From a virus, in the UHGV virus genome UHGV-0147800: 19,405 nt of DNA. One strand, written 5' to 3'. The notes below the pieces were generated by a model. It was not told the origin of the DNA. It did no database searches and saw nothing but the letters and a program-made list of their open reading frames with translations. This document shows, in pieces, positions 4,185 through 4,438 of this stretch. The translations under genes were made by a program, and so were the position numbers. The first letter of the stretch is position 1; each line of letters starts with the position of its first letter.

Positions 4185-4206
4185 GAAAAAACCGCCATCA
4201 GGCGGC
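4185..4206 (-). terminator. Putative intrinsic terminator between the small ORF and xis
   Basis: Minus strand reads GCCGCC-TGAT-GGCGG followed by TTTTTTCTT. The stem is short (5 bp, all GC). The stop codon of the 55-aa ORF lies in the loop. Confidence 0.4.
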
Positions 4207-4365
4207 TTGGTGTTCTTTCAGTTCTTCAATTCGAATATTGGTTACGTCTGCATGTGCTATCTGCGCCCACAGCATCCAGTGGTCATAGCAGTCATTGATG
4301 TTCTCTGCTTCGATAACTCTGTTGAATGGTTCTCCATTCCATTCACCTGTGACTCGGAATTGCAT
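4198..4365 (-). CDS. Small hypothetical protein (55 aa), below the ORF-track length cutoff
   Basis: Minus-strand ATG at 4363-4365 preceded by GGAGA 7 nt upstream (TTATGGAGATGATAA-ATG). Translation MQFRVTGEWNGEPFNRVIEAENINDCYDHWMLWAQIAHADVTNIRIEELKEHQAA, stop TGA at 4198-4200. Flanked by terminator-like hairpins on both sides. Confidence 0.45.
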   Translation of the reverse strand: MQFRVTGEWNGEPFNRVIEAENINDCYDHWMLWAQIAHADVTNIRIEELKEHQAA

Positions 4366-4378
4366 TTATCATCTCCAT

Positions 4379-4401
4379 AAAACAAAACTCGCCGTAGCGA
4401 G
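4379..4401 (-). terminator. Putative intrinsic terminator (second of a tandem pair after the 94-aa gene)
   Basis: Minus strand reads CTCGC-TACG-GCGAG followed by TTTTGTTTT, directly upstream of the RBS of the 55-aa ORF. Confidence 0.4.
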
Positions 4402-4406
4402 TTCAG

Positions 4407-4438
4407 ATAAAAGAAATCCCCGCGAGTGCGAGGATTGT
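4407..4438 (-). terminator. Putative intrinsic terminator (first of the tandem pair)
   Basis: Minus strand reads AATCCTCGCACTCGCGGGGATT (about 9-bp stem with one mismatch) followed by TCTTTTATCT, and overlaps the stop of the 94-aa gene. Confidence 0.35.

Follow-up and report, generated by a model that had tools for sequence, protein, structure and literature searches.

In bacteriophage lambda, orf55 (lambdap35; lambda 29118-29285) has been described as the final ORF of the exo-xis region (PMC8614690 and another source), and a CRISPRi essentiality screen of the phage placed lambdap35 between xis and ea8.5 but skipped it for lack of a PAM. The gene has been recorded under several names: the 434 record M60848 names the CDS ORF55 (AAA67903.1); the HK022 counterpart is HK022_33, with the annotation note 'undocumented homolog present in lambda'; and it is annotated as hypothetical in the lambda imm21 and HK022 genomes and labelled "hypothetical protein" by PGAP in RefSeq E. 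coli genomes. Terminators have also been marked in its neighborhood. One is named 'tL4 terminator' in X51962 (HK022) and 't-L4' in M60848; another, t'-I in M60848, is a hairpin situated right before xis, and is given as a terminator, with PMID 6305007 cited, in OL657226, a recent annotation of 434. Furthermore, Bloch et al. 2014 (PMC4195576), using ARNold, predicted three hairpins of the lambda region, t3, t4 and t5, which correspond to hairpins 1, 2 and 3 below. As for the protein itself, Donaldson and colleagues have proposed from modelling that Orf55 resembles the T7 protein Gp2 (PMC8614690).

The DNA analysed here, referred to as the window, is the whole stretch of 19,405 nucleotides of the virus genome UHGV-0147800. 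Judging from its gene content, it holds a lambdoid prophage with HK022-type int and xis genes beside a host sensor-kinase gene that we read by eye as torS (Table 1). Its int, which RefSeq labels 'tyrosine-type recombinase/integrase', ends at 2889 beside host DNA, and the window also encodes kil, a cIII thermosensor, cI, cro, O and Q. A match to the Rfam family Lambda_thermo (the cIII thermoregulator), with 88.5 bits and E=4.5e-21, lies at 8774-8832 (-), where it overlaps the start of the Kil-containing ORF region. For recombination, the prophage has a P22-like module, with an Abc2 anti-RecBCD protein and an AAA_24 protein at 6795-7091 (-) and 7699-8379 (-), as against exo/bet/gam in lambda, which illustrates how mosaic it is. 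A strong terminator-like hairpin, CCCGGCTTCCGCGCCGGG-T6, was also seen at about 10494-10470.

Table 1. Features of the window that bear on orf55 and its flanking hairpins.
Feature	Position	Strand	Description and basis
torS-like host sensor kinase gene	50-2794		Adjoins int
int (HK022-type tyrosine integrase, 357 aa)	2889-3962	minus	Length and arrangement as HK022 int in X51962
xis (excisionase, 72 aa)	3940-4158	minus	Pfam Exc PF07825, E=3.9e-41
pI promoter with CII site TTGCGTGTAATTGC	4153-4184; CII site 4184-4171	minus	Overlaps xis start; adjoins t'I T-run
Hairpin 3 (t'I)	4179-4208; stem 4208-4189	minus	8 bp, 5 GC pairs, T6 run; scan and folding
orf55 (lambdap35 homologue), 55 aa	4198-4365	minus	ATG start at 4365-4363; ORF listing and homology
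Shine-Dalgarno GGAG	4376-4373	minus	7 nt 5' of orf55 ATG; sequence reading
Hairpin 2	4375-4404; stem 4404-4385	minus	8 bp, tail TGTTTTATGG / TGTTTTAT, ends at orf55 RBS; scan and folding
Hairpin 1 (tL4)	4405-4436; stem 4436-4415	minus	9 bp stem, tail TCTTTTATCT; scan, folding and homology
HK022_34-like gene, 94 aa	4438-4722	minus	5' of tL4; phrog_625, sub-threshold ASCH similarity
DUF551 ORF		minus	Next beyond the 4438-4722 ORF
N antiterminator gene	9726-10070	minus	Same leftward operon; Pfam N_peptide, E=6.9e-32
Probable nutL	10097-10139	minus	5' of N; boxA-like GCTCTTTAA, then hairpins GTCGACTCTCGAC and TGGCTGAAAAGCCA; read by eye
cII (pI activator)	12719-13018	plus	Pfam Phage_CII, E=1e-34

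A first-pass annotation of the window had drawn attention to the 55-aa ORF directly 5' of xis. The ORF listing matches the start and peptide given there exactly, and the Shine-Dalgarno sequence proposed for it is present; the records of 434 and lambda imm21 mark the same element as ribosome_binding_site. By homology and gene order, the ORF is the orthologue of lambda orf55, a gene that is already known and remains uncharacterised. It has the same length, RBS, flanking hairpins and place directly 5' of xis as its lambda counterpart; lambda, 434 and HK022 match the DNA of orf55 and its hairpins at 95-97% identity; and the gene order of the window (ASCH-like gene, orf55, xis, int) is shared by all three phages. 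Window and lambda Orf55 differ by about 2-3 amino acids (M-Q-F versus M-H-F; L32 versus I32). The prophage around the window copy is, however, a mosaic: its int is HK022-type, and the gene upstream of orf55 is HK022_34-like in place of lambda ea8.5. PGAP names that upstream gene 'ASCH domain-containing protein'; its identification as ea8.5 was ruled out, as it lies outside the stretch homologous to lambda, which begins at hairpin 1. HK022 itself departs from the pattern by a 1-nt deletion right after ATGC, where an upstream ATG keeps the frame and yields a 59-aa product (MEMINAFRV...; L001:340-350 / L006:1323-1502). Since this upstream ATG has no obvious Shine-Dalgarno sequence, the HK022 protein may be poorly translated.

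The ORF had been called unannotated, owing to a length cutoff in the track used at the first pass; in fact, annotations of it exist for lambda, 434, HK022 and RefSeq E. coli genomes, and it is widespread. A megablast search of phage genomes with the 400-bp region matched 363 records, lambda, 434 and HK022 among them, at 90-99% identity, and, among 5426 complete E. coli genomes, about 2200 (~40%) carry the gene at a coverage of at least 80%. Proteins in E. coli and phages are 95-98% identical to window Orf55. A scan of genome contigs for orf55 was uninformative, nearly all of its matches being lambda DNA in unrelated assemblies. Its matches L008-L028 are near-identical lambda orf55 regions in assemblies labelled Shewanella, Pseudomonas, Kitasatospora, Oceanobacillus, Bradyrhizobium and others, where the contig concerned is either about 48.5 kb long or tiny and of low coverage. 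These are almost certainly lambda control-DNA contamination of public assemblies.

The length of the ORF does not by itself argue for a gene: with 49 ORFs of 30 aa or longer listed in 4 kb, one of 55 aa is not above chance, and the case for a real gene rests on conservation. About 230 orf55 loci were collected by protein similarity, of which 226 have the start in register; each of these 226 holds a 168-nt ORF, although this lack of frameshifts is partly circular given how the loci were chosen. The dN/dS ratio does not share that circularity. By the Nei-Gojobori method (NG86) the comparison with lambda gives 0.10 and that with Klebsiella-type copies, for which dS is saturated, 0.05-0.10, and the 121 distinct DNA sequences among the loci have 28, 11 and 50 variable sites at codon positions 1, 2 and 3, respectively. 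The encoded protein is acidic (pI 4.7, charge about -6), a property common to all of its relatives, and its AlphaFold2 model has a pLDDT of 90 and a beta-beta-alpha-beta topology. The suggestion that the ORF encodes a small protein is thus borne out by a conserved reading frame: on this comparative evidence, orf55 is a genuine, strongly constrained protein-coding gene for a small acidic protein. The first-pass annotation had also recognised no motif in the peptide. This stands insofar as scans of Pfam, NCBIfam and PADLOC with Orf55 and its distant relatives found no family; it does not stand in that the protein belongs to phrog_676 (profile match E=1.4e-39, residues 1-55 of 55) and has a confidently predicted fold.

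Two tandem hairpins with T-runs had been noticed 5' of the RBS, and a third across the stop codon. Our scan recovers all three, at coordinates that differ from the earlier ones by 2-3 nt. Each is a GC-rich stem-loop with a U-tract directly 3' on the transcribed strand, and when folded as RNA against dinucleotide shuffles, hairpins 1, 2 and 3 give -13.4 kcal/mol (z = -4.9), -11.9 kcal/mol (z = -3.95) and -13.0 kcal/mol (z = -2.9), that is, 2.9 to 4.9 standard deviations better than the shuffles. Hairpins 1 and 2 folded as a tandem pair reach -25.3 kcal/mol (z = -5.7). Where 3.9 +/- 2.2 terminator-like sites would be expected in 4.2 kb, the scan finds 8, of which three are grouped around orf55 on its coding strand. 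The loop of hairpin 3 holds the orf55 TGA stop (4200-4198), while its 5' arm consists of the codons for the C-terminal Ala-Ala.

The database record points the same way. The tL4 annotations of HK022 and 434 lie on sequence homologous to hairpin 1; the X51962 feature reads AATCCTCGCATTCGCGGGGATTTCTTTTA and its window counterpart AATCCTCGCACTCGCGGGGATTTCTTTTA. Relative to lambda, hairpin 1 is the same as tL4 but for one tail base, hairpin 3 is identical, and hairpin 2 has an A-U pair where lambda has G.U (GCGAG versus GCGGG). Hairpin 2 bears no annotation in the GenBank records examined, and Rfam at a permissive threshold has no match in 4100-4500. In 434 and HK022, t'I proper differs from hairpin 3 in lying 3' of an inserted gene, ORF114, and in having a different stem (GCCGC/GCGGC). 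By sequence and database annotation, the three hairpins are canonical intrinsic-terminator structures.

On its xis side, hairpin 3 leads straight into pI, the position held by the annotated t'-I in 434. The last bases of the t'I T-run are 4186-4185, and the CII site, TTGC-N6-TTGC, starts at 4184; the window pI (4184-4153) is identical to the stretch of OL657226 annotated as 'pI promoter; CII-controlled' and 'CII binding site'. Given that N, a nutL-like site and CII are all encoded in the window, the textbook lambda reading fits. We therefore consider it highly probable that the region is the distal end of the leftward early (pL) operon, with orf55 bracketed by tL4 and the second hairpin on one side and t'I on the other, under the gating of N. 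By analogy with lambda, unmodified RNA polymerase from pL would stop at these terminators, while polymerase modified by N via nutL would read through tL1 to tL4 and t'I, so that orf55, xis and int would be delayed-early products, made only from N-modified pL transcripts. t'I would likewise insulate pI, xis and int from unmodified upstream transcription. As pI starts inside xis, its activation by CII would make Int without Xis during the establishment of lysogeny.

The proposed isolation of the small gene from pL transcription unless N antiterminates agrees with this gene content. Two other elements of the first-pass annotation have to be given up. It had put the ORF between the early-left operon and xis, yet orf55 is the last gene of that operon, in the exo-xis region. 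It had also considered a retroregulation region controlling int and xis, but the HK022 record X51962 places sib downstream of int, beyond attP. Because orf55 lies 5' of xis and sib/tI downstream of int, a retroregulatory role is unsupported here; with sib beyond attP, in the prophage it would lie at the other end.

The hairpins were further compared across 225 loci for which both flanks were available; these loci are mutually related, and the counts that follow are hence not independent. At least one terminator-like hairpin occurs within 95 nt 5' of the ATG in 205 loci, about 20 being without one, and the stop-spanning hairpin is found in 198 and is weakened in 27. The hairpin bracket around orf55 is common, not obligatory. 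Hairpin 2 is kept with orf55 in nearly all E. coli-type loci. A compensated double change of hairpin 3, GCCTCC/GGAGG, occurs in a viral contig (L143), and its single-mutant intermediate, GCCGCC/GGAGG with a G.A mismatch, is seen in the first copy of 434.

The same comparison raises the question of whether the hairpins are kept mainly as module junctions (recombination linkers) and/or as 3' structures stabilising the mRNA, instead of as a gate for orf55, xis and int. Between phages, homology breaks off no more than about 15 nt from the 3' arm and T-tail of hairpin 1, and again directly past the T-run of hairpin 3, beyond which we find at least 6 different contexts, several of them with excisionases from other families; they include lambda xis, ORF114, a DUF1233 excisionase, two sub-threshold HTH_17/AlpA-like genes and a 71-aa membrane protein. 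In 434 and HK022, the ORF114 insert (114 aa, with no Pfam family) between orf55 and xis has a terminator-like hairpin copy on each side (434: L002:520-1000), and even a distant homologue located after N (L233) retains the hairpin at its stop codon, ending GCC GCC TAA inside a stem-loop with a T6 run. Mosaic breakpoints inside the tL4 3' arm and T-tail (window 4415-4436; L042, L047, L118) join three unrelated GC-rich stems to one TTTCTTTTATCTG tail, and unrelated stems (GCCGCTTAATGCGG, AACCCGCCGAGTGCGGGTT and GGAGCTTCGGCTCC-T7) occupy the same slots in other phages. That a swapped upstream module brings a different yet terminator-shaped stem argues for selection on termination and not only on sequence homology, and t'I adjoins pI in every lambda-type xis context. 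The two roles, moreover, are not mutually exclusive. We thus regard it as unlikely that junction or stabilising functions are the main reason for the hairpins; they do, from where homology breaks, double as mosaic junctions, which fits lambdoid mosaicism and is compatible with the terminator role.

The function of the protein is a separate matter. When 1.84 billion representatives were searched exhaustively with a profile, only 53 clusters were returned for the orf55 family; a search of PDB sequences with the family profile gave chance matches only, to nitrite reductase at E about 0.4. The distant full-length members of the family, 38-50% identical, occupy other places in the early operons of lambdoid phages: some follow N directly (L233, L236-L238 and L242, at about 3001-3174 in each), and others are found near another xis/int pair or downstream of the O/P replication genes (L239). 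A terminator-like hairpin stands just 5' of the distant member in L233, L238 and L242. These scattered operon positions suggest that orf55 is a mobile early accessory gene and not an int/xis-specific factor.

According to the published Gp2-like proposal, Orf55 would inhibit or modulate host RNA polymerase by binding the beta-prime jaw and sigma70 region 1.1. T7 Gp2 (PF16857; PDB 2wnm, 4lk0) is likewise a small, acidic, early phage protein, and its beta-beta-alpha-beta topology is the one predicted for Orf55. A Foldseek search of the PDB with the Orf55 model has Gp2 (4lk0_M) as its top match (E=0.033, TM about 0.6, 23% identity), with the RNAP epsilon subunit YkzG next, and the BFVD matches include three 'RNA polymerase inhibitor' proteins at E=0.04-0.07. 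In addition, hhalign gives a collinear alignment of 43 columns at 28-30% identity. However, neither structural search contains a match at E<=0.001, and the profile-profile probability of the hhalign comparison, with single-sequence and family profiles, is 0.7-2%. The Pfam model RNA_pol_inhib (PF16857) recognises Gp2 at 4e-28, yet has no match to Orf55 at E<=0.1 or to the distant members at E<=1. The 20 Gp2 homologues compared all have the RVRP motif (R56-V-R58-P59), but the orf55 family does not conserve it: Orf55 R45, which aligns to it, varies among other members (Q, V, E, H, N or D), and N43 replaces R56. Nor is it obvious what a temperate phage, dependent on the host RNAP at every stage, would gain from a Gp2-type shut-off. 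Membership of Orf55 in the PF16857 family was rejected, its homology being unproven with no Pfam match, a low hhalign probability and RVRP missing, and we judge a Gp2-like action on RNA polymerase to be improbable.

The overlap of t'I with the orf55 stop also bears on how the terminator would work. In E. coli, a terminator lying a few bp from a stop codon is subject to almost complete repression by the terminating ribosome (PMC4824070); t'I overlaps such a stop and may hence be weak on translated transcripts. If so, it may act mainly on untranslated or uncoupled transcripts. Carried further, orf55 could chiefly be a leader-like ORF, whose translation masks the t'I 5' arm and controls readthrough into xis and int while the peptide itself is unimportant. 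The stop in the loop, the last two codons forming the 5' arm, and the repression just cited would all suit such an arrangement. It is nonetheless very improbable, as purifying selection is strong over the whole peptide, a fold is predicted with confidence, and homologues after N or O/P have no xis/int downstream.

Finally, orf55 shares with the morons of lambdoid phages (promoter-gene-terminator cassettes) its character as a small non-essential accessory gene with flanking terminators and mosaic junctions, a mobile position among phages and a very wide distribution in E. coli, but the idea that it is a classic moron, expressed from its own promoter in the repressed prophage to the benefit of the lysogen, was rejected as most improbable: a consensus scan of the minus strand in 4100-4500, whose reach does not extend to non-canonical promoters, found no sigma70 promoter-like site, the space of about 20 nt between hairpin 2 and the ATG is taken up by the T-tail and Shine-Dalgarno sequence, and every orf55 context examined is co-oriented inside, and apparently dependent on, the early operon.

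Taken together, our results support the textbook lambda reading of the region as the N-gated distal end of the pL operon. The observation from which they started is correct but already known, the ORF being a named lambda gene and the terminators being present in GenBank features and in the 2014 paper. As to what Orf55 does, our guess from its fold, charge and operon position is a small accessory protein that binds a host factor during early lytic growth. A bolder extension would make the orf55 family a widespread group of small acidic early proteins that modulate a host machine, be it RNA polymerase, in the way of Gp2, or some other target (compare the similarly shaped p56, AcrIE2 and Dmd), and would tie t'I readthrough into xis and int to the translation of orf55 as an extra layer on the N gate; as a whole, we find this improbable. 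orf55 is among the last lambda genes without a function. Purifying selection on it is strong and E. coli prophages carry it very often, yet the CRISPRi screen passed it over. Finding the host partner of Orf55, or directly testing the Gp2-like idea, would fill a small, long-standing gap in the lambda map.
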